Assembly: GCA_027491395.1 (NCBI GenBank)
Contig: JAOZFI010000017.1
Coordinates: 29,672 to 93,671 of the forward strand
Length of the DNA stretch: 64,000 nucleotides
From: Thermoproteota archaeon
Lineage (GTDB): Archaea; Korarchaeota; Korarchaeia; Korarchaeales; Korarchaeaceae
Reading direction: 5' to 3'
Both the position numbers and the translations under genes were made by a program. The notes beneath the pieces are model-generated. The model was not told where the DNA came from. It saw only the letters and a list, made by a program, of their open reading frames with translations, and did not search any database. Shown here piece by piece: positions 10,387 through 55,477 of the stretch (its first letter is position 1; every line of letters begins with the position of its first letter).

Positions 10387-11194
10387 TATTCGCCGCCTGA
10401 TAGAGGACAGGACGAGGGGCTCGCTGGAGATATTCGAGGAGGCCCTGATCTTACTCAATAAGTCGAGAGATCCGTGCAAAGATGCTAGAGTCCTCAGAGA
10501 AGCTCATCCAGAGATGACGGCCCTGGAATACTTGGAGATGGCAGCGTGCTCCGGCTCTCTGTTCAAGTTAAGGGAGTTCTACGGTAGATCCAAGGAGGAA
10601 TTGGCTTCTACATGCTCTAACCTCCTATCTGAGCTGGGAATCGAAGTTATAGCTACCTTAAGCAGGAGCTCCGCAGTCATAAACTGTCTGAAGAGGTCCT
10701 CCGTGAGCGAGGTGATAGTCGGGGAATCTAGACCGGGAAGAGAGGGGCTAAGGACCGCAGAAATTCTCAGAGACGCGGGGTTCAAGGTGACTCTAGTGGT
10801 TGATGCCCTCCTCCCATGGTACTCCAAGAGGAAAGGGGCCGTGGGCTTGGTTGGCGCGGACAGGGTCACCCCATCCCATCTGATAAACAAGGCTGGTACC
10901 TTGCCACTCGCAACCCTGATCAAGACGATAGCGGTTCCCGGACTTCTCAAGCTTCACAGGGATAGTTACACCATAGAGAGGAGGGATCCAAGGGAAGTGG
11001 CAGTGTTGGAGGGTGTGGAAGTGGTGAACATCTACTTCGACGAGACACCCCTGAATTCTCTCCACAGGCTGGTGTTCGAGGAACTCGTGCTTAAACCTAA
11101 AGAGATAGGAAAGGCCTTCGAAAAATTGGAGACGGTGCTGGGAATCAGAGCAGATGGAGGATCATTAGGAAGAAACCTATCACAGCCGAGATGA
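10376..11194 (+). CDS. eIF-2B alpha/beta/delta-like (ribose-1,5-bisphosphate isomerase-like) protein; probable start upstream of ATG 10514
   Basis: TLSRSSAV, ESRPGREG, VGADRV, INKAGT, YFDETP; frame is open upstream with IEDRTRGS..AHPEM. Confidence 0.75.
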   Translation, partial: TNTDIRRLIEDRTRGSLEIFEEALILLNKSRDPCKDARVLREAHPEMTALEYLEMAACSGSLFKLREFYGRSKEELASTCSNLLSELGIEVIATLSRSSAVINCLKRSSVSEVIVGESRPGREGLRTAEILRDAGFKVTLVVDALLPWYSKRKGAVGLVGADRVTPSHLINKAGTLPLATLIKTIAVPGLLKLHRDSYTIERRDPREVAVLEGVEVVNIYFDETPLNSLHRLVFEELVLKPKEIGKAFEKLETVLGIRADGGSLGRNLSQPR

Positions 11195-11501
11195 TCCAAG
11201 CGACTATCGAGATGGCCGCAGCAGTCAACCACCCGACCCTAAACCACACCTTCAGCACCCAGATCCAGATCACTATGATTAAGATCTTCTCTAGTATCCA
11301 CAGGGGGAGCAATACGAAGATGATCCCGAGCACAAAGTCTATCACTGACCAAACGAAGGCGAGGGCCAGAGCTGATAGGAAGGACCGCTCCTTCTTCTCG
11401 GGAAGCACTATCTTCTGAGCTAACCATAGGACGACGGCACTCACAACTAGGGTCACGAGGAACCTCACGAGGGAACCGAAGATACCTGTCATCGAGATCA
11501 T
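11145..11501 (-). CDS. Small 4-TM membrane protein, unknown function
   Basis: Four hydrophobic helices; co-oriented downstream of lhr. Confidence 0.7.
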   Translation of the reverse strand: MISMTGIFGSLVRFLVTLVVSAVVLWLAQKIVLPEKKERSFLSALALAFVWSVIDFVLGIIFVLLPLWILEKILIIVIWIWVLKVWFRVGWLTAAAISIVAWIISAVIGFFLMILHLL

Positions 11502-15699: not shown

Positions 15700-16041
15700 G
15701 GGATAGTCTAGGAGACTGATTAATAAGCTCTAACCGAAAATGGATTGAGACCGAACTTTCCTTCTTGTCTTGTTGGCAAGGGAAAGGCGAAACACTTTCT
15801 TGAATGGCATAGATGTAGGGTGTCACACTAGTAAATGCTGTGGAATGAAGAAGGTAGAGCGAAAACGGATTAGTAATAATATCTTAACATAGCGAAGCAC
15901 AGCGAATTATGTGGAAATGTCCCTGTTTACGATCTAACGATGTCCAATAATATGATGTTCCAAAGTATATCGATTCCATCTTTCGTCAAAAATTGAAGAA
16001 TATTTAAGTATGTAGCAATTCAAATATTTTGGTAGACATCA

Positions 16042-16773
16042 ATGATCTCGAAAAGTAGAGTAACCGTCTTGATAATATCCGCCTCTTTGTTAATCATTTT
16101 GTCAGTTATCCTATCGTTCGCGCTTAACCCTCCGGAATCAATGAGCCTTTCGATGGGACCCGTCTACTCCACTCCCATCTCAAAGGTCAAGAAGGACCTA
16201 TTGGACAGCTTCATGAATGTCACATTAGAGAAATTAAAGGAAGACAGGGAATATAGTTTAAAGTATCTGAATTTCACGCGATGGTTAGGTGAAACATACG
16301 GCCTCGCTTACGATGAACTTTTCTGGACCAGAGAAGAGCTTGTCAAGATAATGGAGAAGGCCAAGCAATTAGACGAGGAGGCCGCCGACTGGCTCAAACA
16401 GGTGAACGCAACTCTCATCGTGGCCTTTAGCCTGCCGCCGGATACTAACCTGTCATATGCTAATATGATGGCGGATCTCATCTCCAAATATGCCCCAAAC
16501 TTCAAGGCGGTCAAGGTGCAGGTCCTCTATAGCATAGACAGGTACAAGGTGAAGTACAAGGAAGGGTCCATGGATCTGCACCTGAGCATCATCAGGGCGT
16601 TCCTCCAGAGGAACCTCAGTATTAGAGTAAAGACCATTGAGCCATACGGAATAGGAAGCGTGGAAATCACGCCAGCAGATCTGGACAAGCTCACACCACA
16701 ATATCTGGAAAAGGCATTGGATGCGACCGAGGAAGCGGCAAAGGGCGGGAAACCTAAAGCTTACCGACTATAA
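16042..16773 (+). CDS. Hypothetical N-terminally anchored/secreted protein
   Basis: 243-aa ORF with one N-terminal hydrophobic helix; TATA-like TTTAAGT about 35 nt upstream; AT-rich islet. Confidence 0.7.
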   Translation: MISKSRVTVLIISASLLIILSVILSFALNPPESMSLSMGPVYSTPISKVKKDLLDSFMNVTLEKLKEDREYSLKYLNFTRWLGETYGLAYDELFWTREELVKIMEKAKQLDEEAADWLKQVNATLIVAFSLPPDTNLSYANMMADLISKYAPNFKAVKVQVLYSIDRYKVKYKEGSMDLHLSIIRAFLQRNLSIRVKTIEPYGIGSVEITPADLDKLTPQYLEKALDATEEAAKGGKPKAYRL

Positions 16774-17116
16774 GTCAGCTTGGGAATGTGGACAATGGTA
16801 TCAGGGACCTGTAACGGTCTATAACGCGAATTTTCACTGGAAGTGGTGGTTCTGGCATTTCTGCGGAGATTGGGGTGAATCAGGCTGTAAGATGTACGCA
16901 CGTGAGGAGATCGAGGGGTGTGACATTCATTACATTCGCCGGATGCATTTTCTTATGGAAGGAGATTATATCTTCGGCCTTATAGACTCTCCGGGGTGCG
17001 AATACGCAAGTAACTGTGGAGGAACCTGCGGGTCAGCTAATACTAAATTTCATGGTTTTTACTCCGTTACACACGCGAAAATGAGCCCCTACATAAGGTT
17101 TTACTCTTTATTATGA
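16721..17116 (+). CDS. Cys/Trp-rich hypothetical domain, possibly the frameshifted C-terminus of 16042..16773
   Basis: 7 Cys and 7 Trp in 131 aa; overlaps the upstream ORF in the +1 frame with no clear RBS. Confidence 0.5.
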   Translation: MRPRKRQRAGNLKLTDYKSAWECGQWYQGPVTVYNANFHWKWWFWHFCGDWGESGCKMYAREEIEGCDIHYIRRMHFLMEGDYIFGLIDSPGCEYASNCGGTCGSANTKFHGFYSVTHAKMSPYIRFYSLL

Positions 17117-17137
17117 TAGCTGATTATAAACTGACCT

Positions 17138-17235
17138 ATCACAGCACATTTAATGAACTATATACGTTGCTGTGATGCTCCATGACTTATGCTATTGCTA
17201 TTTTTATTAAGTGGGGAGTGGTTACCCCCACTTAA
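17138..17235. repeat. Two inverted repeats downstream of the Cys-rich ORF
   Basis: ATCACAGCA(17138-46)/TGCTGTGAT(17168-76) and TTAAGTGGGG(17207-16)/CCCCACTTAA(17226-35). Confidence 0.7.
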
Positions 17236-17510
17236 GAGGTTCAGCCACCCAGGCTTGTCAAGTAAATTTGATACTATACCTCCTATCCCTTCCGATTAAT
17301 TCTTCTCTTATCTTCAATAATTAATAATTTCCTCTTTCTTTTTAGTACGAGCAACGAACTTTTAATCGAACAACAGGGACAGCTGGGCGCAAAAGGAAGG
17401 GTCAATATACAACAAGGAGAAAAGGTTAGAGATCCCTTTAGATACATTTGTATATTTGATGCCAGTGTAGATACTAGGAAAAATGGAAAAATGAAAGGGG
17501 AAGAGAGCAT

Positions 17511-17912
17511 ATGTCCTCCCTCACAAATAGACTTAAGTTAATAGAGCGAAAATTGAAGAGGAGAGGTATAGTAGCGATTATACTCTTCGGTTCCTCGCTA
17601 AAAGGAAGAATTCATCCACTTAGCGATGTGGACATCGCTGTTCTCTTCAAAGATGAACCGCTAGAGCGTGATATCGAATGGCTATATCTGGAGCTTCAAA
17701 GATATCTCAGGAGAGAAGTAGATCTCATCATCCTCAATAAGGCTCCTCCCAGAATAAGATTTTCTGCCTTGAAAGGTGAACTGCTTTACGTTGGAGACGA
17801 GAGAGAACTAATCCACTTCATGACTAAGGTTTACGACGAGTGGGCTGATTTGGAGTATCTCAGGAGAGTGATCTGGAATTACACGGAGAGGTGGCTGACC
17901 GTTGGAGGTTGA
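17511..17912 (+). CDS. Minimal nucleotidyltransferase (MNT/MntA antitoxin)
   Basis: ILFGS..G..HPLSDVDIAV, VDLIILNKAPP. Confidence 0.9.
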   Translation: MSSLTNRLKLIERKLKRRGIVAIILFGSSLKGRIHPLSDVDIAVLFKDEPLERDIEWLYLELQRYLRREVDLIILNKAPPRIRFSALKGELLYVGDERELIHFMTKVYDEWADLEYLRRVIWNYTERWLTVGG

Positions 17913-18324
17913 CATGGAAGCGGTCAAGTCCAGAATAGAGCTACTGAGGGGATATTTATCCTCCTTAGAGGAACTGAAATCGAACGAGGAAGAATTTTAC
18001 AAATCCTTGGTATACCGAATGGCGGTGGAAAGGCTTTTGCATCTGTCTATTGAATGTCTTTTAGACATACCGCAGCACATAGCTGCGGCTAAGGGACATA
18101 GGCCTCCTGAGAGTTATGCTGATACCATCACAGTGCTCGAGGAAGCCGGACTTGTACCTCCTGAGAAAGCAGACAATTATAGGAGAATTGCTAGGTTCCG
18201 AGATGTCCTAGTTCACGCGTACGTATCAATAGACCCAGATAGAGTTTTTGAGGTTTGGATGAGAGAGTTGGAGGATCTCAGGGAAATGGCGAGGGACCTC
18301 ATGAACGCCGCTACTGATCCCTAG
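17902..18324 (+). CDS. HEPN (DUF86/HepT-like) toxin
   Basis: AVERLL..SIEC.LDI..HI, P.SYAD, RFRDVLVHAY (RX4H); overlaps MNT. Confidence 0.88.
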   Translation: MEVDMEAVKSRIELLRGYLSSLEELKSNEEEFYKSLVYRMAVERLLHLSIECLLDIPQHIAAAKGHRPPESYADTITVLEEAGLVPPEKADNYRRIARFRDVLVHAYVSIDPDRVFEVWMRELEDLREMARDLMNAATDP

Positions 18325-22662: not shown

Positions 22663-22754
22663 CCCATCATAGAATCCGTCCCTCCTTTTAAGGGATGAGT
22701 GCGTCGCCGCCAGCAGATGAGAAGACTTAATTCCTCAACTCACTCACTGGCTGG

Positions 22755-23714
22755 GTGTCTATGAGGACCTCCCATGTGGGCAGCTACCCCTTGGACCACT
22801 CCCCGGATAATCTGAGAAGGGCGTTCCTCGACACGGTAGATGCAGGAATTACTGTCCCACCAGTTCCCCAGCTCAGACCCTTCACGGACATGTACTTGGA
22901 ACCTTTGGCGGAGATGGGTCAACTCGAGCCCATAGGGGGCGGCAAGTATAGGCCCATCGACCTTCACGGCGAGCCTGAACTACCCAAGTTGGATGAGGTA
23001 GAATGGTTCCTCGAACTTGCCAACGAGATGAACTTCGACTTGTCCACAGTCAGGCTCCCCCTAACGGGCCCCTTCACACTGGCGAGCAGGGTAGAGGTAG
23101 GGGATGGCGGGGTCTTTAACTCACTCTTGGCGGACAAGAAAGCTCTATTCGACTTCTTCGTCCCCTACGTGTCAAAGATAGCCGAGAGAATGGATTCCGT
23201 TGGGTTCGGATACATCTTCGTCGATGAGCCGGTCATAGGGCTCTTGGTGGGGAGGAGGATCCTCTTCGATTACAGGGAGGAGGACATAATAGAATCATAT
23301 GAGCGGGTCTTCTCCAGCGTAAAGGCCGAGAAAGGCACCCATATATGCGGGAAATTATCTCCCAAGCTCTCGGAATTGCTGATGAAGGTTCCCGTGAGGT
23401 ATCTGAGCCACGAGTTCTTCGACTCCAGATCTAATCTCGAGAGGTTCTCCCGACAGAAGCTGGAGGATGCTGACAAGGTTATCTCCCCCGGTGTGGTGAG
23501 CGCGCAGAGCATGGAGGTGGAGGGGAGAGAGGTGGTAAGCGGTCTCCTCAAGGAGTTGATGGAGAGGTTCGGGGCTGAGAGAATAGACTTGATCAGCGGG
23601 GATTGTGGGTTCGGTGGATTGAAGGCCGCTGGACCCCGAGCGTATGAAGTGGCCATAAGTAAGCTCAGAGTAATAGTGGAGGTGGTCACATCCCTACAGA
23701 GCGAGTGCGGGTGA
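22755..23714 (+). CDS. Core (single-domain) methionine synthase, MetE C-terminal-like
   Basis: HVGSYP, LTGPFTLA, VDEP, Zn ligands HICG / HE / DCGFG; only about 320 aa, no N-terminal folate-binding barrel. Confidence 0.75.
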   Translation: MSMRTSHVGSYPLDHSPDNLRRAFLDTVDAGITVPPVPQLRPFTDMYLEPLAEMGQLEPIGGGKYRPIDLHGEPELPKLDEVEWFLELANEMNFDLSTVRLPLTGPFTLASRVEVGDGGVFNSLLADKKALFDFFVPYVSKIAERMDSVGFGYIFVDEPVIGLLVGRRILFDYREEDIIESYERVFSSVKAEKGTHICGKLSPKLSELLMKVPVRYLSHEFFDSRSNLERFSRQKLEDADKVISPGVVSAQSMEVEGREVVSGLLKELMERFGAERIDLISGDCGFGGLKAAGPRAYEVAISKLRVIVEVVTSLQSECG

Positions 23715-25327
23715 AGATTCTACCCGCTGGCGTGGAGGTCGAGGCGGACAAGGGCGAGCTACTATCCAATATACTCAGCAGAACCGTATCATTCCCCCTG
23801 CCGTGTGGAGGCGCTGGGTACTGCGGAGGATGCGCCGTGAGAGTGCTCGAGGGAAAGGTGACCCCTCCTACTAGGGAAGAGCGACTGACCGGTGTGATAG
23901 AGAGGGGGATGAGGCTAGCTTGCAGGACTAAAGTGATGGGGAGTGTAGTTGTCGAGGTCCCCAGAATAGCCCCCGTGGCCACAGTCTCGGGAATGATGCC
24001 CCGATTCGAGCTGAGCCCTCTGATCAGGAAATCCGGACTTGGAGATATGGCCCTCCCCAGGTCTCTCCCTCAACCCTCATTCAGCTTCAAAGGAATCGCC
24101 TTCCGCTCCGGAGGGGGAGAAATCGGACTTGCGGTGGATCTTGGGACTACCAACATATCCGGATCGCTGCTCGACCTGAGGAACGGGAGACCTCTGATTG
24201 AGGGTTTCGTGAGGAACCCCCAAGTGTCGAGGGGAGCTGATGTGATCACTAGGATGGAGAAGGCCTTGGAAGGTGAGAGGGAGGCGTTGAGGAACATGGC
24301 GATTCAAGGCATAGAGGATCTGTCCTCGAAACTCTGCAAAGCTGTAGATGTCAGGGAGGAGGATGTATCCATAGTCTCGGTAGTCGGAAACTCGGTGATG
24401 CATGCTCTCCTTCTTGGATTGCCCGTCGATTCCCTATCTGCAGCGCCGTTCGAGCCCCCCCTCAAGATGTGGGTCTCAGGGCCAGCGGATGAGGCCGGAT
24501 TTGAGAGGCTCTCCGAGAGCTGGCTCTTGGTTCCCCCGCCCTTGGCAGGCTTCGTTGGCTCCGACGCCTTATCCGACCTTGTAGTTGCGGAGATGCTTGA
24601 GCTGGAGAGGCCCTACCTCCTGATCGACTTGGGAACGAACACGGAGGTGATGCTGGTGACGGACGATGTGCTGGCGACCAGCGCACCAGCAGGCTCTGCC
24701 TTTGAATCTAACGTTCCGTCGGGGGTGGGTGGCGTTCGGGGGACAATAAACAGGGTGAGAATCACCGAGGAGGGAATCGAGGTGGAGGTAGAGGGTAGAC
24801 CCGTGGGCCTGAGCGGCTCAGGACTCATCTCAGCCGTGGCTGAGATGCTGAGATGGGATCTTCTCTCAGAGAACGGGAGGATGTCTAGGGAGCTTGAGGG
24901 GAAGCTCAGGCTAGTGGACTCCCCGAGGATAGAGGTGACGCAGAGGGATGTGAGAGAGGTCCAGAAGGCGGTGGCTGCGGTGTACTCGGCTTGGAGGATC
25001 CTCATGCGGAGGAAAGGCTTGAGCCATGAGGACTTAAAAGGGGTCTACCTCGCCGGTACCTTCGGGAGTCACGTGGATCCGTCGGATGCCATCGAGATAG
25101 GCCTCATCCCACCAGTTGATCCGGAAACGGTAGTCTCCCTAGGTAACACAGCGTTATCAGGGGCTAAACTCTTAATACTGAGTGAGGATGCGTTCACCAA
25201 GTTCAACGAGCTGTACTCCATGGTCACTTATGTGGATCTGGCCAGAGACCCTGAATTTAGTGAAGCCTTCATAGAGGGAACGTACCTGAGGGGGCCCCCT
25301 CCTGATCCTTCATCCGGCAACCTTTAA
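23705..25327 (+). CDS. Reductive activator of corrinoid proteins (RACo/RamA-like ASKHA ATPase with N-terminal [2Fe-2S])
   Basis: PCGGAGYCGGC..RLAC; DLGTT, NPQ...GADVITR, VGNSVM, GFVGSD, DLGTNTE, AGSAFE, GSG, TQRDVREVQKA, LAGTFG, GNTAL.GA. Confidence 0.9.
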   Translation: MRVKILPAGVEVEADKGELLSNILSRTVSFPLPCGGAGYCGGCAVRVLEGKVTPPTREERLTGVIERGMRLACRTKVMGSVVVEVPRIAPVATVSGMMPRFELSPLIRKSGLGDMALPRSLPQPSFSFKGIAFRSGGGEIGLAVDLGTTNISGSLLDLRNGRPLIEGFVRNPQVSRGADVITRMEKALEGEREALRNMAIQGIEDLSSKLCKAVDVREEDVSIVSVVGNSVMHALLLGLPVDSLSAAPFEPPLKMWVSGPADEAGFERLSESWLLVPPPLAGFVGSDALSDLVVAEMLELERPYLLIDLGTNTEVMLVTDDVLATSAPAGSAFESNVPSGVGGVRGTINRVRITEEGIEVEVEGRPVGLSGSGLISAVAEMLRWDLLSENGRMSRELEGKLRLVDSPRIEVTQRDVREVQKAVAAVYSAWRILMRRKGLSHEDLKGVYLAGTFGSHVDPSDAIEIGLIPPVDPETVVSLGNTALSGAKLLILSEDAFTKFNELYSMVTYVDLARDPEFSEAFIEGTYLRGPPPDPSSGNL

Positions 25328-25364: not shown

Positions 25365-26378
25365 ATGCTATTCGACCTGAGGCCCAAGAAATCTAGGAAA
25401 GACCTCTTCGACAGGGAATGGGAGCTAGAGGAGCTGGAAAGGGCCTCTGGCAGATATCCTCTCATCCTACTACTGGGTATTAGGAGGATAGGTAAGACCA
25501 GCGTGGCTTGGTGCTTCTTAGAGGGGAAGAGGGGATTCTTAGTTGACATGAGAGGTGTCATCCGGCGGGCTGATCTCTACGAGAGGGTGGCTAGGGGACT
25601 TGAGGAATCATTAAGCAAGATGAGAAGGTTCCTGAGGGGTATAAGGGGCATTAAGATAGCAGGCGCTGAGGTTGAGATCCAGTGGAGAGGAATGGATTCC
25701 CTGAGCCTCGCAGGTCTTCTGACAGAATTGAACAAGCTGGACGAGTTCGTTGTGATCTTGGACGAGGTCCAGCATCTGAGGCAACCCCTCATGTCCGAGG
25801 TGAGGGAGATGATAGCCTACGCCTACGACAATCTGGACAATGTGACCCTCATCCTCACGGGCTCGGAGATAGGCATGCTCAGAAGGTTCCTCAGACTCGA
25901 AGATCCATCTTCCCCCCTCTATGGGAGGTACGCATATGAGGTCGAGGTGAGAAGGTTCACCAAGGAGCAATCTAAGGAGTTCTTGGTGAGGGGATTCAGA
26001 GAAGTAGGAATGGAACCGCCGATGGAGGAAGTGGAGAAGGCCGTGGAATTCTTCGACGGGATAGTGGGGTGGCTCGTCATTTTCGGTAAATCCTACTCAG
26101 AGGGTAAAGGGGGCTTCGAGGCCATAGCGGAGATGGCCATTGGGATGGCCATCACCGAATTGATGAAACTCGATCCTAGGGAGAAACTCGTCCTCAAGGC
26201 CGTTGCCAGGGGGGCGAGGAGCTGGAGCCAAGTAAGAGAGCTGATAGAGGAGAAGGAAGGAGCCGTAATACCTAAATCCTCCCTGTCCAGAACAATCAAG
26301 AGGCTGGAGAGGCTAAGCCTCATCAAGGACTATGAGTTCTTGGATCCCGTTTACGAGAAGGCTGCACTGAGACTGTAG
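25365..26378 (+). CDS. Archaeal ATPase (COG1672/STAND-like) with C-terminal wHTH
   Basis: MLFDLRPK..LFDRE.E, Walker A GIRRIGKTS, Walker B ILDEVQ, LTGSEIG, PLYGR, GIVGWL, C-terminal wHTH ending FLDPVY. Confidence 0.88.
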   Translation: MLFDLRPKKSRKDLFDREWELEELERASGRYPLILLLGIRRIGKTSVAWCFLEGKRGFLVDMRGVIRRADLYERVARGLEESLSKMRRFLRGIRGIKIAGAEVEIQWRGMDSLSLAGLLTELNKLDEFVVILDEVQHLRQPLMSEVREMIAYAYDNLDNVTLILTGSEIGMLRRFLRLEDPSSPLYGRYAYEVEVRRFTKEQSKEFLVRGFREVGMEPPMEEVEKAVEFFDGIVGWLVIFGKSYSEGKGGFEAIAEMAIGMAITELMKLDPREKLVLKAVARGARSWSQVRELIEEKEGAVIPKSSLSRTIKRLERLSLIKDYEFLDPVYEKAALRL

Positions 26379-27971: not shown

Positions 27972-28490
27972 ATGCTCGTGGCAGTGGGCTCGACCAATCC
28001 CGTGAAGATCGAAGCAGTTAGGAGGGCCTTCTCCTCGGTTTGGGAGGTCGAAGTGAGGGGCGTTGAAGTGAACAGCGGTGTCTCTCCAGAGCCAGTCGGT
28101 CAGGAGGCCATTATAGGTGCTATGAACAGAGCTAGAAAAGCGATGGCCACTCTGAACGCGGATTTCGGCGTGGGCATAGAGGGGGGCGTCTTTCACTTGG
28201 GTGGCTGGTACTACTGCGCCGGCTTCGTCTGGGTGGAGAGGAAGGATGGCGTTTACGGCACGGGCACCAGCGGGTGGTTCGAATGCCCAAAGAGTTTCAC
28301 AGCTAGCTTGCTCACCGGAGTGGAGCTCGGGGACCTCATGGCAAGGATAAGCGGGAAGGCCGAGATAAAGAGGGAGGAGGGGGCGATAGGCTACTTCACC
28401 AAGGGCGTGGTGAGCAGGACCGACCTGTACACACACGGCGTGCTTATGGCCCTAGCCAAGTTCATCGCAGGTGACAGGTGGCCGGGATGA
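27972..28490 (+). CDS. yjjX: Inosine/xanthosine triphosphatase
   Basis: [41 protein letters not shown]. Confidence 0.9.
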
Positions 28491-29010
28491 TAGCATGATG
28501 ATCGTGGCTCTCTTAGGAGGTAGGAGGGATCTACTCTATAAACCGCTGGTCAACATGCTGGCCAGCTCCGGATACAGGGTCGCTGCGGCCGTTCAGCTGA
28601 GGAAGGTCGGACTCGCCAAGGACATGAGGGAGCTGGCTGAAGCAGGAGCCGGTCTGATAGTGGCACATTCAACCAACAGGGTGGTCCTATCGACGACGTA
28701 CGTGCCAGACGCCTTGGATGAGATCAGCAAGATGGTGGGCTGCCTTGCACCTGTGGGTCCCGATGCCCTCATCCTACTCGGATTCCAGAAGTTGGTGCGA
28801 GACGATGAGAGGGTTCTAAAAGCCTTAGCTGTTTGGAGCGCCAAGGAAGCCGAGTCCCTACTTGCCGAGATCGCCCCTCCAGTAGTAGGAGTGTACTCCG
28901 AGAGAAGGGACTATCTTGGGGGGTACTCCACACCGGATGAGCTGGCAAATGCTATAGTAGATGAGGGGATGAAAAGAAGACTAATCCAACCGAGAGTCAG
29001 GAAGGCCTGA
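28471..29010 (+). CDS. MobB-like protein lacking Walker A
   Basis: [17 protein letters not shown]...[22 protein letters not shown] resemble MobB, but GKT is absent. Confidence 0.5.
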
Positions 29011-29033: not shown

Positions 29034-29216
29034 ATGAGGAGGACTCATCTAGTCTTCGCAGCGTTCGTCCTCTACTGGATCTCCCTGCTACTCAGGTGGA
29101 GGTTGGATTCGATCTTATCCTCTGTATGTCTGATAGCATTTCTTTTCCCAAATCTTGATTATTATCTGAGGAGCCTTCCCCTAGTTGAGCACAGGAAGAC
29201 CCTCCACAACGTCTAG
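29034..29216 (+). pseudogene. Truncated metal-dependent membrane hydrolase (YdjM/DUF457-like)
   Basis: MRRTH..., FPNLD, HRKTLHN motifs followed by TAG after 60 codons. Confidence 0.65.
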
Positions 29217-29279
29217 GTCCTATCGATCACGACGTACATGCTCCATCTGTATAGGCTCCCAGCTCCTTGATGATTGCGC

Positions 29280-29722
29280 GCTGCTTTATAATTCACTGAC
29301 AAACCTCCTCGCCAGCTCCGGGTATAGGGTTACCACTGCTATCCAGCTGAGAAAAGTAAGCATGATAGAGGAAATGATAGAGCTGGTCGAGGCCGGAGCA
29401 GGACTGATCATGGCCCATTCCATCAACAAAACTCCACTCTCCACTACCTACATTCCGAACACTTTGGAAGAAGTAAAAAGGATCATAAGCTGCTTAACTC
29501 CTGTTGATCCCGATGCCTTAATCCTGCTGGGATTTCATAAACTCGTAAATGGAGAGGAGAAGTACTCAAGGCGCTCGCCGTGTGGAGCTTGAATGAGGCG
29601 AAATCGCTCCCATAAGAGCTCTCCTCTCCCATTATGGGGGTGTACTCAGACAGGAGGGATTATGAGAGGGGTACAAGTCTCCTGAGGAACTCGCGAGGGC
29701 TATCGTCTAGGAGGGGATGATA
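29280..29722 (+). pseudogene. Degenerate tandem paralogue of 28471..29010
   Basis: [29 protein letters not shown], then frameshift to [33 protein letters not shown], then second frameshift to KSPEELARAIV*EGM. Confidence 0.85.
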
Positions 29723-33753: not shown

Positions 33754-34575
33754 CTAGGGACGACTGCTCCTAGAATTCGTACGTTCGAGTCTATCTAGGA
33801 GATCCTCAAACCTCAGCACGGGAGGATCGGCGGGGAAGATCATCCTAGAAACTGAAGGGACCAGTGGAGGCCTTATCCCAATCTCACGAAGCTCTTCCAC
33901 TCTCACCAGCAGGTCGGAAGCTAAGCCACTCATGACCAGCTCGCCATTCTTCAGAATGTGGACTGTATCGGAGATCTCGGCGGCCATGTCGGAGTTCTGG
34001 GAACTGATTACTACGATTCTATTCCTCTCCTTGAAGAGCTTTATAAGCTCGAGGAGATGCTCCGTTCCTTCTGCATCGAGAGAAGACCAAGGTTCATCCA
34101 GAAGAAGGACCTCGGGATCGTGGGCGAGGAGCCCCGCTAAGATCACCTTGGCGGCCTGTCCCCTGCTCAATCTCAGTGGAGATTTTGACGCTAGGTCCTC
34201 TATCCCGAAGAACCGGAGGGCCTCCTCGACCCTGCTCATCACCTCTCCCTCATCCAATCCAAGCTGCTTAGGCGCCAGAGCGACATCCTCCCATACAGTT
34301 GGAGCTAGGAGCTGATCTCTAGGATCTTGAAACAGTATTCCGCAGTGTTTTCTGAACCAATTTCCTAGGGGCTTTCCATAGAAGGTCACCCCCCCTTCGG
34401 TTGGAGTCAGGAGGCCAGCCATCAAGAGGAGCAGAGTGGTCTTTCCCGAGCCGTTAGGTCCCAGAACGAATGCTATCTCTCCCGACCTGACCTCTAAGTT
34501 CACATCCCTTAGAGCAGGCGTTCCGTCTGGATAGGAGTAGCTGACATTCCTCAGGGAAAGTATCACAGGACCCAC
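33754..34575 (-). CDS. nikO: ECF transporter ATPase (CbiO/NikO)
   Basis: GPNGSGKTT, FQDPRDQL..PTV.EDVA, LLDEP. Confidence 0.88.
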   Translation of the reverse strand: MGPVILSLRNVSYSYPDGTPALRDVNLEVRSGEIAFVLGPNGSGKTTLLLLMAGLLTPTEGGVTFYGKPLGNWFRKHCGILFQDPRDQLLAPTVWEDVALAPKQLGLDEGEVMSRVEEALRFFGIEDLASKSPLRLSRGQAAKVILAGLLAHDPEVLLLDEPWSSLDAEGTEHLLELIKLFKERNRIVVISSQNSDMAAEISDTVHILKNGELVMSGLASDLLVRVEELREIGIRPPLVPSVSRMIFPADPPVLRFEDLLDRLERTNSRSSRP

Positions 34576-35291
34576 CTCGCGCAGGACATGGATATGGAGA
34601 GGAGGAATACCGCAATCAAAATGATATCCCTCTTCTCAAGGGAACTATCGGGTATGGAGTTCCATACTCTCGATCTCTTGGCCAGGGAGATGGAGAAAGC
34701 TCTCTCCCTCCCGCGGTTGAGCAGTTCAGAGGCCGCGAGTGATATAACCTCGTACCCCATAGAAGGACTCTCGTCGAAGTTCCTGGATCCCTTTGCAATT
34801 ATCAGCCAACCTACATTCCTCAAATAGTACGAGATCTGCCCGAGCATTATGTCTAAAGATTCGGGGAGCTGGGGAGCTATCAATGCAAGCCCCTCAAGTA
34901 TGGACTTGATCCCCAAGAGGGTCGCGGAAGCTTCTAGGACTAGGAGGCTGGACAGGACCCTGAGAGGCGTCATTAGGGGATCTAGGGACCCGGACAGGTA
35001 CACCTTGGGGAGCATTATCACCGAGGTGAAGATCGCCCACATCATCGAGATCTTCAGGAACCTCGTCCACGCGCGGCCAATGAGCCAAAATCCCCATAGG
35101 GTGGATACGATGGAGAGGTACGCGAGCTGGATCACATCGGAGGAGAATGAGGGGATAGATGCCAGAAAAACGGTTATGGGGAGGGATAGAATCGGGGAGA
35201 CGTTTACCTTTCCCCTGAGCAGTTCGAAGGACGTTACCCAGTCTCCCAGTCTCCTCATCAGACCGGTAAAGGTCTTCTCCAACCATGTCAA
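34563..35291 (-). CDS. nikQ: ECF transporter T component (CbiQ/NikQ-like)
   Basis: Multi-TM protein with AKGSR and AKRSR motifs, between NikN and NikO. Confidence 0.7.
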   Translation of the reverse strand: MTWLEKTFTGLMRRLGDWVTSFELLRGKVNVSPILSLPITVFLASIPSFSSDVIQLAYLSIVSTLWGFWLIGRAWTRFLKISMMWAIFTSVIMLPKVYLSGSLDPLMTPLRVLSSLLVLEASATLLGIKSILEGLALIAPQLPESLDIMLGQISYYLRNVGWLIIAKGSRNFDESPSMGYEVISLAASELLNRGRERAFSISLAKRSRVWNSIPDSSLEKRDIILIAVFLLSISMSCARWVL

Positions 35292-35554
35292 TCTCTTCTA
35301 CCCCTCAGCAAGGCGGGCAGTAGGAGGACCCCTACACCAACAAACCCCGATATCATGTATCCCATCACATCCGGTACACCAGGTACCGTGTAGTCCGGGA
35401 AGATCCCCGTCCAGATAGGTTCACTCTCGCCAAGCCCGATCAGTTCCGCGGCTACATCCAGTGGCTCGTGATATCCTACAATATCTGCCCCGATTACCCC
35501 GAAGATGGGGCTCACGAGGACCAATATAAGTATCAAGAGATAGGGTCTGCTCAC
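35288..35554 (-). CDS. PDGLE-domain (NikN-like) component
   Basis: HEPLDVAAE, FPDYTVPG, two TM helices. Confidence 0.8.
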   Translation of the reverse strand: MSRPYLLILILVLVSPIFGVIGADIVGYHEPLDVAAELIGLGESEPIWTGIFPDYTVPGVPDVMGYMISGFVGVGVLLLPALLRGRRD

Positions 35555-36156
35555 TTACCGATCACCCTCACCCGGCTGACGATGAACCCAGTGGCCACCC
35601 CTTCCACCAGTCCTAGGAGGAGGTGCCAAGTCCCTATAACGGGAACGGTCACGCTCAGCGGATAGCCGAACTGAGGAGAGAGTCCTATCTCCACCCCACA
35701 GACTACGGCGGCTGCAGCTATGGCCAGCCAACCTGCGAGGAAACCGGCTAAGAATTTCTTTCCACCCGATATGCGCATCACCATCTTGTAAATGAGGTAG
35801 CCTAGGAATACATCCACCACGGCCATGTTGAATGCGTTCGCGCCCAGCGCGGTGATCCCCCCGTCACCCATGAGGATGCACTGGACAAGCAGGTTCATGA
35901 ACATGGCCAAACATCCACCGAATGGGCCCAATAGAATGCCAGCAAGAGCTCCTCCCACTAGGTGCGCGGAGGTTCCTCCGGGTATCGGCCAGTTCAGCAT
36001 CTGGGCAGCGAAGATACCTGCTGCCATCACCGATAAGTAGTAGATATCACCTCCCTCCTTGAAATACCTCCTTCCCGAGTACGTGACCACAAGTAGGGAA
36101 ATGATGTAGAGGGACAGGGCTACTGGGGGGCTCAGGAATCCATCAGGTATGTGCAC
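35551..36156 (-). CDS. nikM: ECF S component CbiM/NikM
   Basis: GTG start gives MHIPDGFL; GGTSAHLVG, GDGGITALGAN, H..G.VEG. Confidence 0.92.
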   Translation of the reverse strand: MHIPDGFLSPPVALSLYIISLLVVTYSGRRYFKEGGDIYYLSVMAAGIFAAQMLNWPIPGGTSAHLVGGALAGILLGPFGGCLAMFMNLLVQCILMGDGGITALGANAFNMAVVDVFLGYLIYKMVMRISGGKKFLAGFLAGWLAIAAAAVVCGVEIGLSPQFGYPLSVTVPVIGTWHLLLGLVEGVATGFIVSRVRVIGK

Positions 36157-36192
36157 GGTGCATCCCCTTACAGCTCCGGGGAACACTCATAA

Positions 36193-36222: not shown

Positions 36223-37374
36223 TTAAGGTCGAGAGAACTCTTCCCTGAGCCCCCTGAGCAGCTCATCACCACCGTACTTGGCCCATATGAGGCACGTACC
36301 CTCCGATGAGACCATGCAGGGACCATAAGGCCTCTCAGGCGTGCATATTTTCTTGAATAGGGGACAATCGGTGGGTTTGGCCATGCCTAGAGTGACCTCA
36401 GCACACCTGCACCCGGGTGGGAGGTCCTCCATCCACCTCTCCTCAGATAGCTCTGGTATACCGTACTTGAGTAGAGCATCGTACCTCTTGTAAGCATCCT
36501 TCAATTGGAGGCCGCTATCGGGAACAAAGCCTATCCCCCTCCATCCAGCGTCGACCACTTCGCATGTGGATTTCATGACCTCCTTAGCCCTCAAGTTCCC
36601 CTCCCACCTAACCACTCTCGAGTACTCGTTGACCAACTCAGCGCGACCTTCCCTTATCTGCCTCAATATCTCCAGTATGGAGAGGAGCACATCCACCGGC
36701 TCAAAACCTGACACTACAACTGGAATTCCGTAGTCCTTGGCCACGAACTCCCACTCTGATGCACCAGTTATGGCCGAAACATGCCCGGGAGCTATTATCC
36801 CCCTTATAGGCGATTGAGGATAGTTCTCTAGGACGTACTTGGTTATGGGCGGGGTCAGCCTATGGACGATGATGAAGCTCAGGTTATCCGGAACATCTCC
36901 CCTATGAATGGGGCCCAACGTAGCAGGAGCTGTGGTCTCGAAGCCGACGGCGAGGAAAATGGATTCCTTACCGTCTCCTGACAGCTTTATGGCATCGGCC
37001 ACACTGTAAACTATTTTAACGTCAGCTCCTTCTGATTTAGCCTCCTCCAAGTTCTTAGGAGCGCCTTTAGAGCTTCCTGATAACCTGTATACGTCTCCGA
37101 ATGTGAAAACCCTCACTCCCTCCATGGCAAACTTGACGGCGATTTCCACATAGTATCCCGGTGTGATGCAAACCGGGCATCCGGGGCCAGCGATGAGCTC
37201 AACGTTCTGGGGCATCAGGGACCTTATGCCGTAATGGGTGATGGTCCACTCGTGGGTTCCGCAGAAGTCCATTATCTTAACATGATCTTCCAGCTCGCTA
37301 GCTATCTTGGCAATCTCACCCACGATCAACCGGGAGATCTTGGGATCCCTATAGGGGCTGGAGATCTCCATCAT
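36223..37374 (-). CDS. hypD: Hydrogenase maturation protein HypD
   Basis: CGTHE, GPGCPVC, GFETT, PGHVS, GFEP, GPCMVSSEGTC. Confidence 0.97.
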   Translation of the reverse strand: MMEISSPYRDPKISRLIVGEIAKIASELEDHVKIMDFCGTHEWTITHYGIRSLMPQNVELIAGPGCPVCITPGYYVEIAVKFAMEGVRVFTFGDVYRLSGSSKGAPKNLEEAKSEGADVKIVYSVADAIKLSGDGKESIFLAVGFETTAPATLGPIHRGDVPDNLSFIIVHRLTPPITKYVLENYPQSPIRGIIAPGHVSAITGASEWEFVAKDYGIPVVVSGFEPVDVLLSILEILRQIREGRAELVNEYSRVVRWEGNLRAKEVMKSTCEVVDAGWRGIGFVPDSGLQLKDAYKRYDALLKYGIPELSEERWMEDLPPGCRCAEVTLGMAKPTDCPLFKKICTPERPYGPCMVSSEGTCLIWAKYGGDELLRGLREEFSRP

Positions 37375-39680
37375 CCATCACCCAATTGAGTTGCAACCTG
37401 GCCCAAGGCGATTCCACCATCGCCTGGAGGTACCTTAGAGTTCAGAACGAGTTGGACGTCCTCCCTACTAAGTGCATCTTCCATACCCTTGATCAGTAAG
37501 GTGTTGACAGCCGCCCCTCCGGATACCATCACCATCCCGGAATCCGTCCTATTCAGAGCTCTAAGGGCAACCTCACCCAAGGCCTTTCCAAGCAGGTAAA
37601 TTGATGTGTACGCCAGATCCCTCCTGCTTCCATCCTCGTTGTAGAGGATCCGCTTCAGGAGCTCGCTGGTGTCCACTACACCTCCCTCCACGGGAATATC
37701 CAAGTCCTGAACGAGAGATCCCTTTTCAGCGAAGGCCTCGAGTTTCATTGCTGGCTCTCCCTCATAAGTCCTCTCGAAGCAAACTCCAAGCAGAGCCGAC
37801 ACGGAATCCAAGACCCTCCCGACGCTTGATATTAGAGGAGCCCTAGAACACTGCCTCAGAGCCAGTTCTCCCTCCACCTCTCCACCAGGAAGCTTATCCA
37901 TCAAGTGTCTTTCTCTCAGGACCTCCCGTATCTCTGACTCAGAGAGGAACGTGCTCAACATTCCTATCAGCATCCTGACCGGGTACTTGGAAGCCCTGTC
38001 TCCTCCGGGCATGGGCTGGGGTCTGAGATGTCCGATCCTCCTATATCCTTCATAACTCGCAACGAGAACCTCTCCTCCCCAAAGCGTACCGTCATCTCCG
38101 TAACCTAGCCCATCGATCGCTATCCCTACGACCTCCTCTCCGGGTCTGACCCTCATCTCGGACATCACAGAGGTTATATGAGCATGGTGGTGCTGTACAA
38201 GCTTGAGTTCGGATCCGTGGAGATCAGCCCATCTCTCAGCCAACTTTCTCGTGGTGTAGCTGGGGTGCATGTCCGCTACCAGTATCGCCTCCTCCGGGTC
38301 TATCCCGTAAATTCCCGTGAAGAACCTGAGCATCCTCTCGAGAAACTCTAGGTTCTCCAATTCATCCGTATCTCCTATGTACTGGGTGAGCACGACTTTA
38401 TCGGAGAATCCCACGGCGCCGCTGGTCTGCAATTCAGCACCGAACGCTATGACAGGCCGTTCCAGCTGAGAGGGAAGCCTTATCCAGGCGGGAGCGTATC
38501 CCCTTCCCCTCCTCAGCATGGTTACCCTTCCGGCCGTGAACCTGACGACGCTATCGTCCACCCTGTTAACTATGCGCCTGTCGTGATGCAGGAAGTAATC
38601 AGCAATGCCCCTCAACCGCTTCCTAGCGCATTCGATTGTGGTGCACATCGGTTTATTGTGCTCGTTTCCGCTCGTCATAATCAAGATCTTGTCTCTCGTA
38701 TTATTGAGCAGCATATGGTGTAAAGGTGTGTAGGGAAGCATCACACCTACAGTTCCCAGTCCGGGAGCCACCTGTCCTGAGATGAGACTCCCTTTTTTCT
38801 TGGGAACAAGTAAGATTGGCCTCTCTGGGCTTGTAAGGATGATCTCAGCGATCCGATCTAGGTAGAAGTGTGAGCGAGCGACATTCAAGTCTAGAGCCAT
38901 GAGGGCGAAGGGCTTCTCCCTCCGCCTCTTCCTCCTCCTGAGTTCCGAAACGGTATCGTCGTCCGTGGCTAGGCAAGCGATGTGATAGCCCCCCAACCCC
39001 TTTATCGCAACTATCCCTCCCTCGTCTATGATCCTTGCGACCTCCTCTATGGGATCCTCCACATCTATCCTTCTCCCATCAGCGTCCTCAAGCCAGAGGC
39101 TTGGACCGCATCGCGGGCACGAGATTCCCTGAGCGTGGAACCTTCTCGGGTTGGAAGGATCCTCGTACTCTCCCCTACAATCATTGCATAGCGGGAAATC
39201 GACCATTGCAGTGTTCTGTCTATCGTAGGGTACGTCCATCATCATGGAGAACCTAGGGCCGCACCAGGCGCAGCTGTTGAAGGCGTACCTGTAGTGCCTA
39301 TCCGTTGGATCATATACTTCCTCAAGGCAATGGTCACAAACAGCTATGTCTGGAGGGATCATCGAGTAAACATGCTTCTCCTCACCACTCGGAAGTATGC
39401 GGAAATCCGAGTAGCCAGCGGGAGGGACCGCTCTGAACTCTAACTCCTCTATCTTGGCGGGAGGCGGTTTCTCAACGAATATAAGCTTGAGAAAGTCAGC
39501 AATGCTCTCATAGCTACCCTCAATGAAAATCTCCACCTCGCTCCCACCCATGTTCCTTATATGGCCCTTCAATCCTGTTCTCGTAGCGATCCTGTATATG
39601 AAAGGCCTGAAACCGACTCCTTGTACTATGCCACTCACTCTGAGCATCGCAGCAGTCCGTGAACCCCTCGAATGCACCAA
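37371..39680 (-). CDS. hypF: Carbamoyltransferase HypF
   Basis: GIVQGVGFRPF, zinc fingers CxxC, CGPR, KGLGGYH, HHHAH, DGLGYG, PPGDGGIALGQ. Confidence 0.97.
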   Translation of the reverse strand: MVHSRGSRTAAMLRVSGIVQGVGFRPFIYRIATRTGLKGHIRNMGGSEVEIFIEGSYESIADFLKLIFVEKPPPAKIEELEFRAVPPAGYSDFRILPSGEEKHVYSMIPPDIAVCDHCLEEVYDPTDRHYRYAFNSCAWCGPRFSMMMDVPYDRQNTAMVDFPLCNDCRGEYEDPSNPRRFHAQGISCPRCGPSLWLEDADGRRIDVEDPIEEVARIIDEGGIVAIKGLGGYHIACLATDDDTVSELRRRKRRREKPFALMALDLNVARSHFYLDRIAEIILTSPERPILLVPKKKGSLISGQVAPGLGTVGVMLPYTPLHHMLLNNTRDKILIMTSGNEHNKPMCTTIECARKRLRGIADYFLHHDRRIVNRVDDSVVRFTAGRVTMLRRGRGYAPAWIRLPSQLERPVIAFGAELQTSGAVGFSDKVVLTQYIGDTDELENLEFLERMLRFFTGIYGIDPEEAILVADMHPSYTTRKLAERWADLHGSELKLVQHHHAHITSVMSEMRVRPGEEVVGIAIDGLGYGDDGTLWGGEVLVASYEGYRRIGHLRPQPMPGGDRASKYPVRMLIGMLSTFLSESEIREVLRERHLMDKLPGGEVEGELALRQCSRAPLISSVGRVLDSVSALLGVCFERTYEGEPAMKLEAFAEKGSLVQDLDIPVEGGVVDTSELLKRILYNEDGSRRDLAYTSIYLLGKALGEVALRALNRTDSGMVMVSGGAAVNTLLIKGMEDALSREDVQLVLNSKVPPGDGGIALGQVATQLGDG

Positions 39681-39699
39681 GAAAGTAACCCCAGTGGAA

Positions 39700-40019
39700 C
39701 CTAATAAGCGGGACGACGGCTTCCTAGCAGGACTATTTTTACAAATATTTGAATTAATAACGGTGAATTACCTTAGTTAATCTTGAAATATGTTGCCGTT
39801 ATACATTATATTAAATTTTTTGATTTTTTTAATCTTTTAATTTGAACTCCACGTTAAGCATCAAAATAAGTGAATAAAACGTCCTATTCTCCTAATTCGC
39901 CTTTTTTATCTTAAAATACAATCATATTTCCAGACTTATGGCTGAACATTTAACAAAATTTATAGGTATACCAGTTCACTACTACAGTGGCGCACATGTA
40001 CATGTGAGGTGTTTTTGGG
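39700..40019. promoter_or_regulatory. AT-rich divergent promoter region between hypF and the hydrogenase operon
   Basis: ~320 nt strongly AT-rich; TTTATA at ~39959; GAGGTG RBS before 40020. Confidence 0.6.
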
Positions 40020-43049: not shown

Positions 43050-43060
43050 GGGGGGTAGGA

Positions 43061-45186: not shown

Positions 45187-45204
45187 CCCCCTTCCCCATT
45201 TTTA

Positions 45205-46469: not shown

Positions 46470-46478
46470 GGTGATCGC

Positions 46479-47683: not shown

Positions 47684-47910
47684 TGTGCTTGGGAATACCG
47701 GGGAAGGTGGTTGAGATCAGAGAGAGGACCGCCATAGTGGACTTCGGCGGGGTACTCAGGGAGGTAGACGCGACTCTAGAGGAGGTGAATCCGGGAGACT
47801 ATGTGATAGTCCACGTGGGAGTGATAATCTCGAGGATGGATCCCGAAACGGCTAGGGAGACGATAGAAGCTTGGGAAGAGATGATAAAGGCGCTAGAGGG
47901 ATCCCAGTGA
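47683..47910 (+). CDS. hypC: HypC chaperone
   Basis: MCLGIPG, VDFGG, GDYVIVHVG. Confidence 0.95.
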   Translation: MCLGIPGKVVEIRERTAIVDFGGVLREVDATLEEVNPGDYVIVHVGVIISRMDPETARETIEAWEEMIKALEGSQ

Positions 47911-52981: not shown

Positions 52982-52994
52982 TGAGGGTGATGTT

Positions 52995-54530: not shown

Positions 54531-54548
54531 TCCTCACCCCACTTTTTT

Positions 54549-55475: not shown

Positions 55476-55477
55476 GG

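Follow-up and report, generated by a model that had tools for sequence, protein, structure and literature searches.

What does a half-size MetE-type barrel do beside an enzyme that reactivates corrinoid proteins? This question is raised by a gene pair in a 64,000-nucleotide (nt) stretch of DNA, hereafter the window, from a Thermoproteota archaeon of the family Korarchaeaceae (assembly GCA_027491395.1, contig JAOZFI010000017.1, positions 29,672 to 93,671). The first gene encodes a core homocysteine methyltransferase of the MetE type, and its end overlaps the start of a gene for a RACo-type, ATP-dependent reductive activase of corrinoid proteins (Table 1). A preliminary description had read the pair as a folate-independent module for methionine synthesis. 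Analysis of the two proteins and of 80 related loci suggests a modified answer: we consider it fairly probable, from sequence comparison, that the pair is part of a modular corrinoid-dependent methionine synthase. By analogy, its logic would most likely be that of MetH, with a homocysteine module of the MetE type.

The identity of the first protein is based on domain, profile, residue and fold comparisons. Its Pfam match to Meth_synt_2 (PF01717; 30 bits at a cut-off of 21, E 4.2e-7) covers residues 143-310 only, and a match to Meth_synt_1 (17.8 bits) lies under the cut-off of 27. A search of the PDB sequences with the single barrel sequence gave nothing under E 0.44, and a family profile was required: the profile of 39 family members (A1) aligned residues 4-291 to the catalytic half of Thermotoga maritima MetE (1t7l, residues 437-740) with E 9e-20. 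In this alignment, the family motifs GSfP, PQL, iDEP, HvC, shE and DCGF are paired with GSFP, GEF, IDEP, HMC, SIE and DCGL of 1t7l, respectively. Escherichia coli MetE is reported to hold its zinc with H641, C643, E665 and C726, and to bind homocysteine with S433, E484 and D599 (Price 2021, PMC7857596). The corresponding residues of the window barrel are His196, Cys198, Glu220 and Cys284 for zinc, and Ser10, Gln39 and Asp157 for homocysteine. Gln at the E484 position is also given for MesA and MesC (Price 2021, PMC7857596).

Conservation of these residues was counted in 81 family open reading frames (ORFs), i.e. the window barrel and those of the 80 related loci, which carry L numbers below. 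The loci are the best 80 of 116 confirmed relatives in species-representative genomes, collected with a pattern around the DCGF motif, so that the sample is confined to the nearer relatives. D157, H196, C198, E220 and C284 are kept in all 81 ORFs, and S10 and Q39 in 78, the remaining three being truncated at contig ends. An AlphaFold model computed from A1 (predicted local distance difference test, pLDDT, 95.8; predicted TM score, pTM, 0.92) predicts a (beta/alpha)8 barrel like the C-terminal domain of MetE. The best Foldseek matches of this model in the PDB were 3rpd (TM 0.72) and the MetE C-terminal barrels 3l7r, 1xpg and 3bq5 (TM 0.73-0.76), with the MtaA-type 4ay7 (TM 0.60) and uroporphyrinogen decarboxylases ranking behind them. 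The structure 3rpd is cited as that of MesD (Price 2021, PMC7857596), and its profile match is partial (E 1.5e-8) although it is the top fold match. Profile, alignment and conserved residues thus support the earlier view of a core MetE-type enzyme made of one barrel, in which the residues for zinc and homocysteine are intact.

A stand-alone barrel could also be one half of a split MetE. The folate-binding half was considered as a candidate and rejected, as all zinc ligands are kept and Meth_synt_1 stays under its cut-off. The other option is that the barrel is the catalytic subunit of a split MetE, which takes the methyl group directly from methyl-pterin with the help of an unlinked folate-binding subunit, the adjacency to RACo being meaningless. 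We regard this as extremely unlikely. In its favor, split MetE is described as the sole methionine synthase identified in Thermoprotei, with a folate-binding subunit that is hard to detect and not always adjacent (PMC7857596), and the sub-threshold Meth_synt_1 match might be counted for it. However, a family hidden Markov model (HMM) found only the barrel itself in the 388 stop-to-stop frames of the window and only the 81 family ORFs among 1048 neighbor ORFs of the related loci, a search that a very diverged or unlinked partner might escape. The expectation that no folate-binding half lies beside the barrel was thereby borne out. Longer, fused forms of the barrel were absent at E <=1e-10 among 7996 candidates, which is weak evidence. 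The recurrent linkage to RACo, corrinoid protein and MtrH genes in several gene orders, presented below, speaks against a split MetE as well, and so do the family models and the tree.

Of the curated NCBIfam models, PRK00957 (NF002119) gave the best score for the barrel with 67.5 bits (cut-off 258), followed by PRK04326 (NF003317) with 59.4 bits (cut-off 406) and PRK06052 (NF004712) with 43.5 bits (cut-off 387). We infer that these models stand for MesA, the catalytic subunit of split MetE, and MesC, respectively, names that no tool assigned and that we base on protein lengths, the remark of Price 2021 that MesA resembles split MetE, and the MtrA-like tail of one protein, P0249. This protein (412 aa) is a PRK00957-type core methionine synthase (247 bits) with a C-terminal MtrA match at residues 306-406, and the apparent fusion fits the MtrA donor proposed for the methanogen enzymes. 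A profile search of 1.84 billion representatives returned 1150 matches at E <=1e-3, 381 at E <=1e-10 and 95 at E <=1e-30. The NCBIfam models were scanned against 115 of the 150 listed representatives, the 35 omitted being fragments or proteins already in A1. Strong matches to the family profile score merely 53-138 bits on PRK00957; 23 weak matches pass this model, six score best on PRK06052, and none of the 115 reaches the cut-off of PRK04326.

A quick, unrooted IQ-TREE phylogeny under a mixture model was calculated for 101 rows (27 from A1 including the window, 46 others, 22 of the 23 that pass PRK00957, and the six best on PRK06052), without references for MesB, MesD and split MetE. The window barrel is located in a starred clade of 20 rows, all 22 PRK00957-passing rows in a separate starred clade of 41 rows, and the PRK06052 rows in a third starred clade. 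Together, scores and tree point to a further core-MetE clade outside the models taken for MesA, MesC and split MetE; as to the placement against split MetE that the preliminary description had called for, the barrel stands in a clade of its own and scores far under the cut-off of the corresponding model.

The resemblance to the known core enzymes is nevertheless substantial in several respects. MesA, the archaeal core-MetE of methanogens (Price 2021, Deobald 2020), is described as a single barrel of ~300-320 aa that has the same zinc ligands and likewise Gln in place of Glu484; its donor is expected to be a methyl-corrinoid, and its inferred model is the one on which the window barrel scores best. 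It differs in that this score is far under the cut-off, in its separate starred clade, in its methanogen hosts, the relatives of the window barrel carrying Thermoproteota titles, and in that the genes linked to the present family are those for RACo, an MtaC-type carrier and an MtrH-like protein, not those for the membrane Mtr complex. MesB of Dehalococcoides and MesC of Methanosarcina and Archaeoglobus are also core MetE enzymes predicted to use the methyl group of a corrinoid protein, but their proposed donor is CoFeSP. MesC is reported to have mostly His for the second zinc Cys (PMC7857596), whereas the window barrel has Cys198 and scores low on the proxy model PRK06052. The Dehalococcoides enzyme was characterized, and a corrinoid-protein donor argued for, by Deobald 2020 (PMC7005905); according to this source it has Asp instead of the Glu zinc ligand, in contrast to Glu220 here, and MesB is set apart by this description only. 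MesD, an enzyme of aerobic bacteria, needs MesX (DUF1852) and oxygen, while the window has no DUF1852 among its scanned ORFs and contains NiFe hydrogenase and maturation genes. Split MetE (Pyrococcus PF1268/PF1269, Pyrolobus) shares with the window an archaeal MetE-type catalytic barrel that is encoded alone; it differs in its usually adjacent folate-binding barrel, absent from the frames searched here, and in needing neither corrinoid nor activase.

The second gene is of the RACo type, and the assignment to a [2Fe-2S]-ASKHA protein in the preliminary description was confirmed by its three Pfam domains, cluster cysteines and phosphate motifs. Fer2 (38.5 bits), Raco_middle (128.7 bits) and RACo_C_ter (191.8 bits) all score over their cut-offs. 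The four cluster cysteines are kept in 39-41 of the 42 full-length RACo ORFs of related loci, with the codons checked, and D145 and G147 of the middle domain as well as D308, G310 and T311 of the C-terminal domain are invariant in 42 RACo rows. The best PDB match is 3zyy/4c1n (E 1.6e-55 for 3zyy), an entry named "iron-sulfur cluster binding protein" that we take to be the CoFeSP activator RACo of Carboxydothermus. RACo of Carboxydothermus hydrogenoformans and RamA of methanogens have the same [2Fe-2S], middle and ASKHA ATPase domains. The window protein differs in being shorter than 3zyy (540 versus 631 aa), with an alignment that skips ~residues 92-205 of the latter, and in being paired with a methionine-synthase barrel, not with acs or methylamine genes.

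The overlap of the two genes was confirmed. The junction reads GAG TGC GGG TGA with GTG codons at 23705 and 23711, of which the first gives the overlap of 10 nt noted before. The true overlap may be 4 nt, from the second codon, because a GTGA overlap with the stop of the MetE-like gene is seen in the nearest relatives L001, L002, L003, L004, L006 and L007. Close coupling is conserved elsewhere too, with the junction TAAaATG (L015, L017, L028) or an ATG that overlaps the barrel stop (L014). Whichever RACo start holds, the arrangement predicts that the two genes are translationally coupled. The barrel gene itself possibly starts at ATG 22761, which would give MRTSHVGS and match the relatives.

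The conservation of this link was examined in the 80 related loci, of which 79 are titled as Thermoproteota (among them 54 Desulfurococcales and one Korarchaeum) and one is labelled Nitrososphaerota. The 1048 neighbor ORFs within 7 kb were clustered, and recurrent clusters were named by Pfam and NCBIfam. Partners were then counted by tblastn with several queries per cluster (E <=1e-8), many loci being on short contigs. RACo was found near the barrel in 47 of the 80 loci (one of them, L005, counted with an 81-aa ferredoxin remnant), a small corrinoid protein in 38, an MtrH-like methyltransferase in 24, an MTHFR or MTHFR-like gene in 24 (five full-length MTHFR and 19 short forms of ~235 aa), and a methyltransferase of the MttB superfamily in seven. 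At least one of RACo, carrier, MtrH and MttB was present in 54 loci. The barrel is directly followed by RACo (barrel> RACo>, arrowheads giving the orientation) in 16 loci, while RACo lies upstream on the opposite strand, within 1200 bp, in another arrangement seen in 16 loci, mostly MtrH> <RACo <carrier barrel> <MTHFR-like. Further orders are barrel> <MttB <carrier RACo> (five complete loci: L041, L044, L047, L055, L061), MTHFR-like> barrel> carrier> RACo> (three loci), barrel> RACo> MtrH> (three loci) and barrel> RACo> carrier> (two loci). With at least six gene orders across the related loci, the linkage survives rearrangement. In a FastTree phylogeny of 79 barrels, the label "RACo nearby" requires 10 changes and the label "carrier nearby" six. 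The question whether the MetE-RACo link is conserved across archaea, posed in the preliminary description, can thus be answered with RACo in 47 of 80 loci in several gene orders, which argues for a corrinoid-dependent pair. RACo within a few kb in 59% of loci seems very unlikely to arise by chance, because such genes are few per genome; these are raw counts with no null model. The divergence of barrel and RACo from the window copies correlates weakly (Spearman 0.33, p 0.04, 41 loci), and no conclusion was drawn from it.

The linked proteins have recognizable characters. The carrier, which is MtaC/MtgC-like, has a B12-binding_2 domain, a B12-binding domain and the invariant motifs DxHxxG, SxL and GG. 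The MtrH-like protein matches Pfam MtrH (PF02007) with 136.7 bits, and the NCBIfam MtrH family and MtgA with 212 and 177 bits, respectively. The short MTHFR-like protein gave nothing significant when its profile was compared with PDB sequences. Four weak-to-moderate lines suggest that it is a remote relative of MTHFR: a Pfam match of E 0.005, a TIGR00676 match of E 3e-6, an hhalign match to the MTHFR cluster (94.9%, E 4e-8 over 110 columns), and an Atlas value of 0.95 to Thermoproteota "MTHFR domain" clusters. Among cultured organisms, the full module is carried by Thermogladius (L032, L037), and the carrier protein is also found in Staphylothermus.

From the gene pair, its domains, fold, conserved residues and linkage, we infer the following activity, direction of transfer and donor. 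Methylene-pterin would be reduced to methyl-pterin by an MTHFR-type enzyme, either MTHFR itself or the MTHFR-like protein. An MtrH-like methyl-pterin:corrinoid methyltransferase would methylate the Co(I) form of the carrier, a small, His-on (DxHxxG) protein of the MtaC/MtgC type. The barrel would bind homocysteine via Ser10, Gln39 and Asp157, activate its thiol on the zinc held by His196, Cys198, Glu220 and Cys284, and move the methyl group from the CH3-Co(III) carrier to the zinc-bound homocysteine, yielding methionine. RACo, with ATP and its [2Fe-2S] cluster, would serve as a repair enzyme that returns the oxidized, dead Co(II) carrier to Co(I). In the window lineage, the partners are presumed to be encoded elsewhere in the genome. 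In this form, the corrinoid-dependent pairing of the preliminary description stands. Its folate independence is only partly supported, since relatives have corrinoid protein, MtrH-like and MTHFR(-like) genes, which make methyl-pterin the most likely source; the whole pathway would then most likely draw its methyl group from methyl-pterin, as MetH does. MtrA and CoFeSP had been named as donors of the known core enzymes; in relatives with a linked carrier, the donor would be neither of them but a protein of the MtaC/MtgC type. Methylcobalamin is reported to serve core MetE enzymes as donor in vitro, and corrinoid proteins are assumed to take this part in vivo (PMC7857596, PMC7005905).

The closest functional parallel is the split MetH with a RamA-like activase of Phaeobacter inhibens and MtgBCDE of Ruegeria pomeroyi, in which a separate pterin methyltransferase, carrier and homocysteine enzyme are likewise accompanied by a ferredoxin and DUF4445 activase. 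In Phaeobacter, the protein that combines a ferredoxin domain with DUF4445 was reported to be genetically required for split MetH (Price 2018). In systems of this kind, an MttB-type enzyme can reportedly load the same carrier, and one carrier serves methionine synthesis and glycine betaine demethylation (PNAS 2025). These systems differ from the present one in their homocysteine (PF02574) and pterin (PF00809) modules, as opposed to MetE-type PF01717 and MtrH-type PF02007, and in their bacterial, aerobic hosts, the present hosts being archaeal and probably anaerobic.

In seven of the related loci (L033, L036, L041, L044, L047, L055, L061), an MttB-like gene (~478 aa, an uninterrupted ORF with no in-frame amber codon) lies beside the corrinoid gene and not far from the barrel gene. 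This hints at a methionine synthesis in which a methylamine-type compound is the donor and the MttB-like enzyme could charge the same carrier with its methyl group. The same gene may be taken for a sign of a different function, with a thiol distinct from homocysteine as the substrate of the barrel, or with the barrel working in the reverse direction on a methyl-thioether, within a catabolic module that delivers methyl groups to the pterin pool. The barrel's faint relationship with MtaA-type enzymes would agree with this (PRK06252 at E 4.4e-5, the 4ay7 fold match, and URO-D Pfam matches in some relatives), as would the interpretation of mtrH-mttB-corrinoid-RamA clusters as quaternary-amine catabolism in a preprint on Culexarchaeia (10.1101/2022.04.06.487207) and the report that MtgD-type pterin methyltransferases run in both directions (PNAS 2025). 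Clusters of this kind, including MtgABC of Desulfitobacterium and those of Culexarchaeia, indeed share MtrH/MtgA-like, MtgC-like and activase members with the present family of loci, and MttB-like members with seven of them. They are, however, read as catabolic, with no MetE-type barrel reported in the parts of these sources available to us, whereas the homocysteine barrel is the constant member here. Moreover, the homocysteine-binding residues are conserved, 24 loci show the linkage to MTHFR or an MTHFR-like gene that methionine synthesis would lead one to expect, and both fold and profile rank MetE and MesD barrels over MtaA. A catabolic role or another thiol substrate therefore appears very improbable to us. 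A paper on MtaA-like proteins (PMC10418091) deals, as far as its available text goes, with a different family.

For the window lineage, the donor proposed here has to be weighed against CoFeSP, in which case the activase would be an AcsV-type activator of CoFeSP. The window RACo scores best on the NCBIfam model AcsV (NF040756; 273.6 bits versus 140.9 on RamA, TIGR04270), which would leave room for a carrier other than the MtaC type, and its best PDB match is the presumed CoFeSP activator mentioned above. In the nine clade and three Korarchaeum-like loci closest to the window, the pair has no gene for a small corrinoid protein in its vicinity. MesB and MesC, furthermore, have been linked to CoFeSP (Price 2021, PMC7857596). 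On the other hand, the AcsV score is far under the cut-off of 800, as is the RamA score under its cut-off of 500, and it does not discriminate the type of carrier, because AcsV is likewise the best model for RACo genes that neighbor MtaC-type proteins (L062: 177 versus 100 for RamA). No cdh, acs, mcr or mtr gene was found among the 62 scanned ORFs of the window, and every linked carrier gene, in 38 loci, is of the MtaC/MtgC type. On balance, we consider CoFeSP an unlikely donor.

Several observations weigh against the proposed modular synthase. As already noted in the preliminary description, the window has no corrinoid-protein gene, which was confirmed by Pfam scans of 62 of its 102 ORFs of at least 100 aa (the others being shadow ORFs inside longer ones) and by tblastn, in which every member of the corrinoid, MtrH, MttB and MTHFR clusters served as a query and none gave a match. 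Carrier, MtrH, MttB and MTHFR genes were also not found within 10 kb in the nine clade and three Korarchaeum-like loci. None of RACo, carrier, MtrH and MttB occurs in 26 of the 80 related loci; where flanks of at least 5 kb are available on either side (43 loci, counting the window), a partner is present in 28 and lacking in 15. Further, the barrel can persist without an adjacent activase, as seen in L005, with only a remnant of RACo, and in L012, with no RACo beside the barrel. The AcsV score of the window RACo, the raw nature of the linkage counts and our own naming of the family models belong on this side as well. A search of proteins with the carrier profile was uninformative for the window lineage: none from this lineage was among the best 120 of 7952 matches, in which the named ones were Desulfurococcales relatives or an unclassified Thermoprotei metagenome-assembled genome.

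The window barrel is 90-91% identical to those of L001-L003 and forms a starred clade of ten with L001-L009, sister to the three Korarchaeum-like loci L010-L012. Clade and sisters share the gene order XPD helicase> (DUF554>) <shikimate kinase <aroE barrel> RACo> ... DHQ (dehydroquinate) synthase II>, with RACo directly after the barrel in all nine clade loci. In L005, a relative that is 73% identical with the same gene order, RACo is the 81-aa remnant of the ferredoxin domain (10959-11201) and the barrel is intact. In the sisters, a PLD-like gene (PLDc_2) lies on the opposite strand just downstream of the barrel (L010, 4191-4724; L011, 10915-11448; L012, 1412-1972); it separates the barrel from RACo in L010 and L011. 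With its close linkage and the lack of a carrier gene nearby in the window lineage and its sisters, the pair could also be imagined as a minimal, two-protein cobamide-dependent synthase, in which the cobamide would be held at the barrel or at the barrel-RACo interface and reduced directly by RACo. We think this very improbable and favor, for these lineages too, a modular synthase with partners encoded elsewhere.

The barrel clade is widespread, occurring in Desulfurococcales, Korarchaeia and one further Thermoproteota clade, and it is tied to genes for an MtaC-type carrier, an MtrH-like loader, MTHFR-like proteins and the RACo activase, methionine synthase being a core enzyme. Price 2021 (PMC7857596), in the portion available, defined MesA-D and split MetE and identified no further methionine synthase in Thermoprotei. 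GapMind 2026 (PMC13759103) lists split MetE and MesC as predictions and, supplements aside, mentions no such Thermoproteota family in its available text. In the literature searched, with the supplements of both papers outside its scope, no description of the barrel clade or of the module was found. If the proposed function is correct, archaea would have assembled a B12-dependent methionine synthase akin to MetH out of MetE-type and Mtr-type components. The MtrH that stands alone in Ignisphaera and other non-methanogens, called unclear in its role (Berghuis 2019, PMC6421429), would gain a concrete, testable one. The host organisms would be predicted to depend on cobamides, and the automatic label of "cobalamin-independent" methionine synthase would be physiologically wrong. 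As the full module is present in cultured Thermogladius, these predictions can be tested at the bench.

Table 1. Coordinates of the gene pair, its domains and its predicted functional residues in the window
Feature	Position	Strand	Remarks
MetE-type core homocysteine methyltransferase gene	22755..23714	+	319 aa from GTG 22755; ORF list, Pfam, profile, fold
RACo-type ATP-dependent reductive activase of corrinoid proteins	23705..25327	+	540 aa, GTG start; Pfam, 3zyy match
Start/stop overlap of barrel and RACo genes	23705..23714	+	10 nt from GTG 23705; 4-nt GTGA if GTG 23711
Divergent intergenic region, aroE (-) to MetE-like gene	22663..22754	.	92 nt; presumed promoter region
Ser10 codon	22782..22784	+	Aligned to the MetE serine at the homocysteine carboxylate
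Gln39 codon	22869..22871	+	Position of MetE Glu484, which binds the homocysteine amino group
Asp157-Glu158-Pro159, MetE DEP motif	23223..23231	+	Asp binds the substrate amino group; codons checked
His196-Ile-Cys198, predicted zinc ligands HxC	23340..23348	+	Aligned to HMC of 1t7l; codons checked
Glu220, predicted zinc ligand	23412..23414	+	shE aligned to SIE; codon checked
Asp283-Cys284-Gly285, Cys284 predicted zinc ligand	23601..23609	+	DCGF aligned to DCGL; Cys284 codon checked
[2Fe-2S] ferredoxin domain with Cys34, Cys40, Cys43, Cys73	23717..23935	+	Pfam Fer2, residues 5-77
RACo middle domain including the DLGTT phosphate-binding motif (24137-24151)	24125..24595	+	Raco_middle, residues 141-297
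RACo C-terminal ASKHA domain including the DLGT motif (24626-24637)	24614..25288	+	RACo_C_ter, residues 304-528

In the intergenic region upstream of the pair, A/T-rich boxes were spotted by eye. A scan for sigma-70 promoters and terminators gave nothing, the model being bacterial and not applicable to archaea. Downstream of the pair, a gene for an archaeal ATPase of the ATPase_2/AAA type with a winged-helix tail (25365-26378) separates RACo from the DHQ synthase II gene. In L002, L006 and L007, this place is taken by an extra ORF, which is absent from L004, L008 and L009; its presence in only some of the clade loci suggests an insertion.

Elsewhere in the window, genes for serine hydroxymethyltransferase (9082-10386) and for homoserine kinase-like and threonine synthase-like proteins are found. 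A CbiM-type cobalt/nickel transporter gene, an ABC ATPase gene and an unassigned ORF between them (33754-36186) adjoin hyp genes. The transporter could carry cobalt or nickel, and may bear on the supply of either cobamide or nickel. The hydrogenase island that follows (36223-48938) contains hypD, hypF, genes for the small and large NiFe subunits, and a gene for an HdrD-like Fe-S/CCG protein, together with those for a HycI-type protease, HypA, an Mrp/ParA-type ATPase and an AIR-synthase-like (hypE-type) protein. Next to it (49358-56248) are genes for a 1207-aa molybdopterin oxidoreductase, 4Fe-4S and cytochrome b subunits and an FdhE-like protein, with FdhD on the other strand; judged by its composition, this set would be a membrane-bound respiratory complex.

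Two smaller elements were also observed. A Polbeta/NTP_transf_2 nucleotidyltransferase gene and a HepT-like RNase gene (17511-18324) form a toxin-antitoxin-like module in a low-GC stretch, the GC content of positions 16001-18000 being 0.436 compared with ~0.53 elsewhere. Finally, two tandem paralogous ORFs without a Pfam family (28471-29010 and 29185-29592; 179 and then 135 aa) are 62% identical over 94 aa, and in the window clade their family has a conserved place downstream of a DUF84 NTPase gene.

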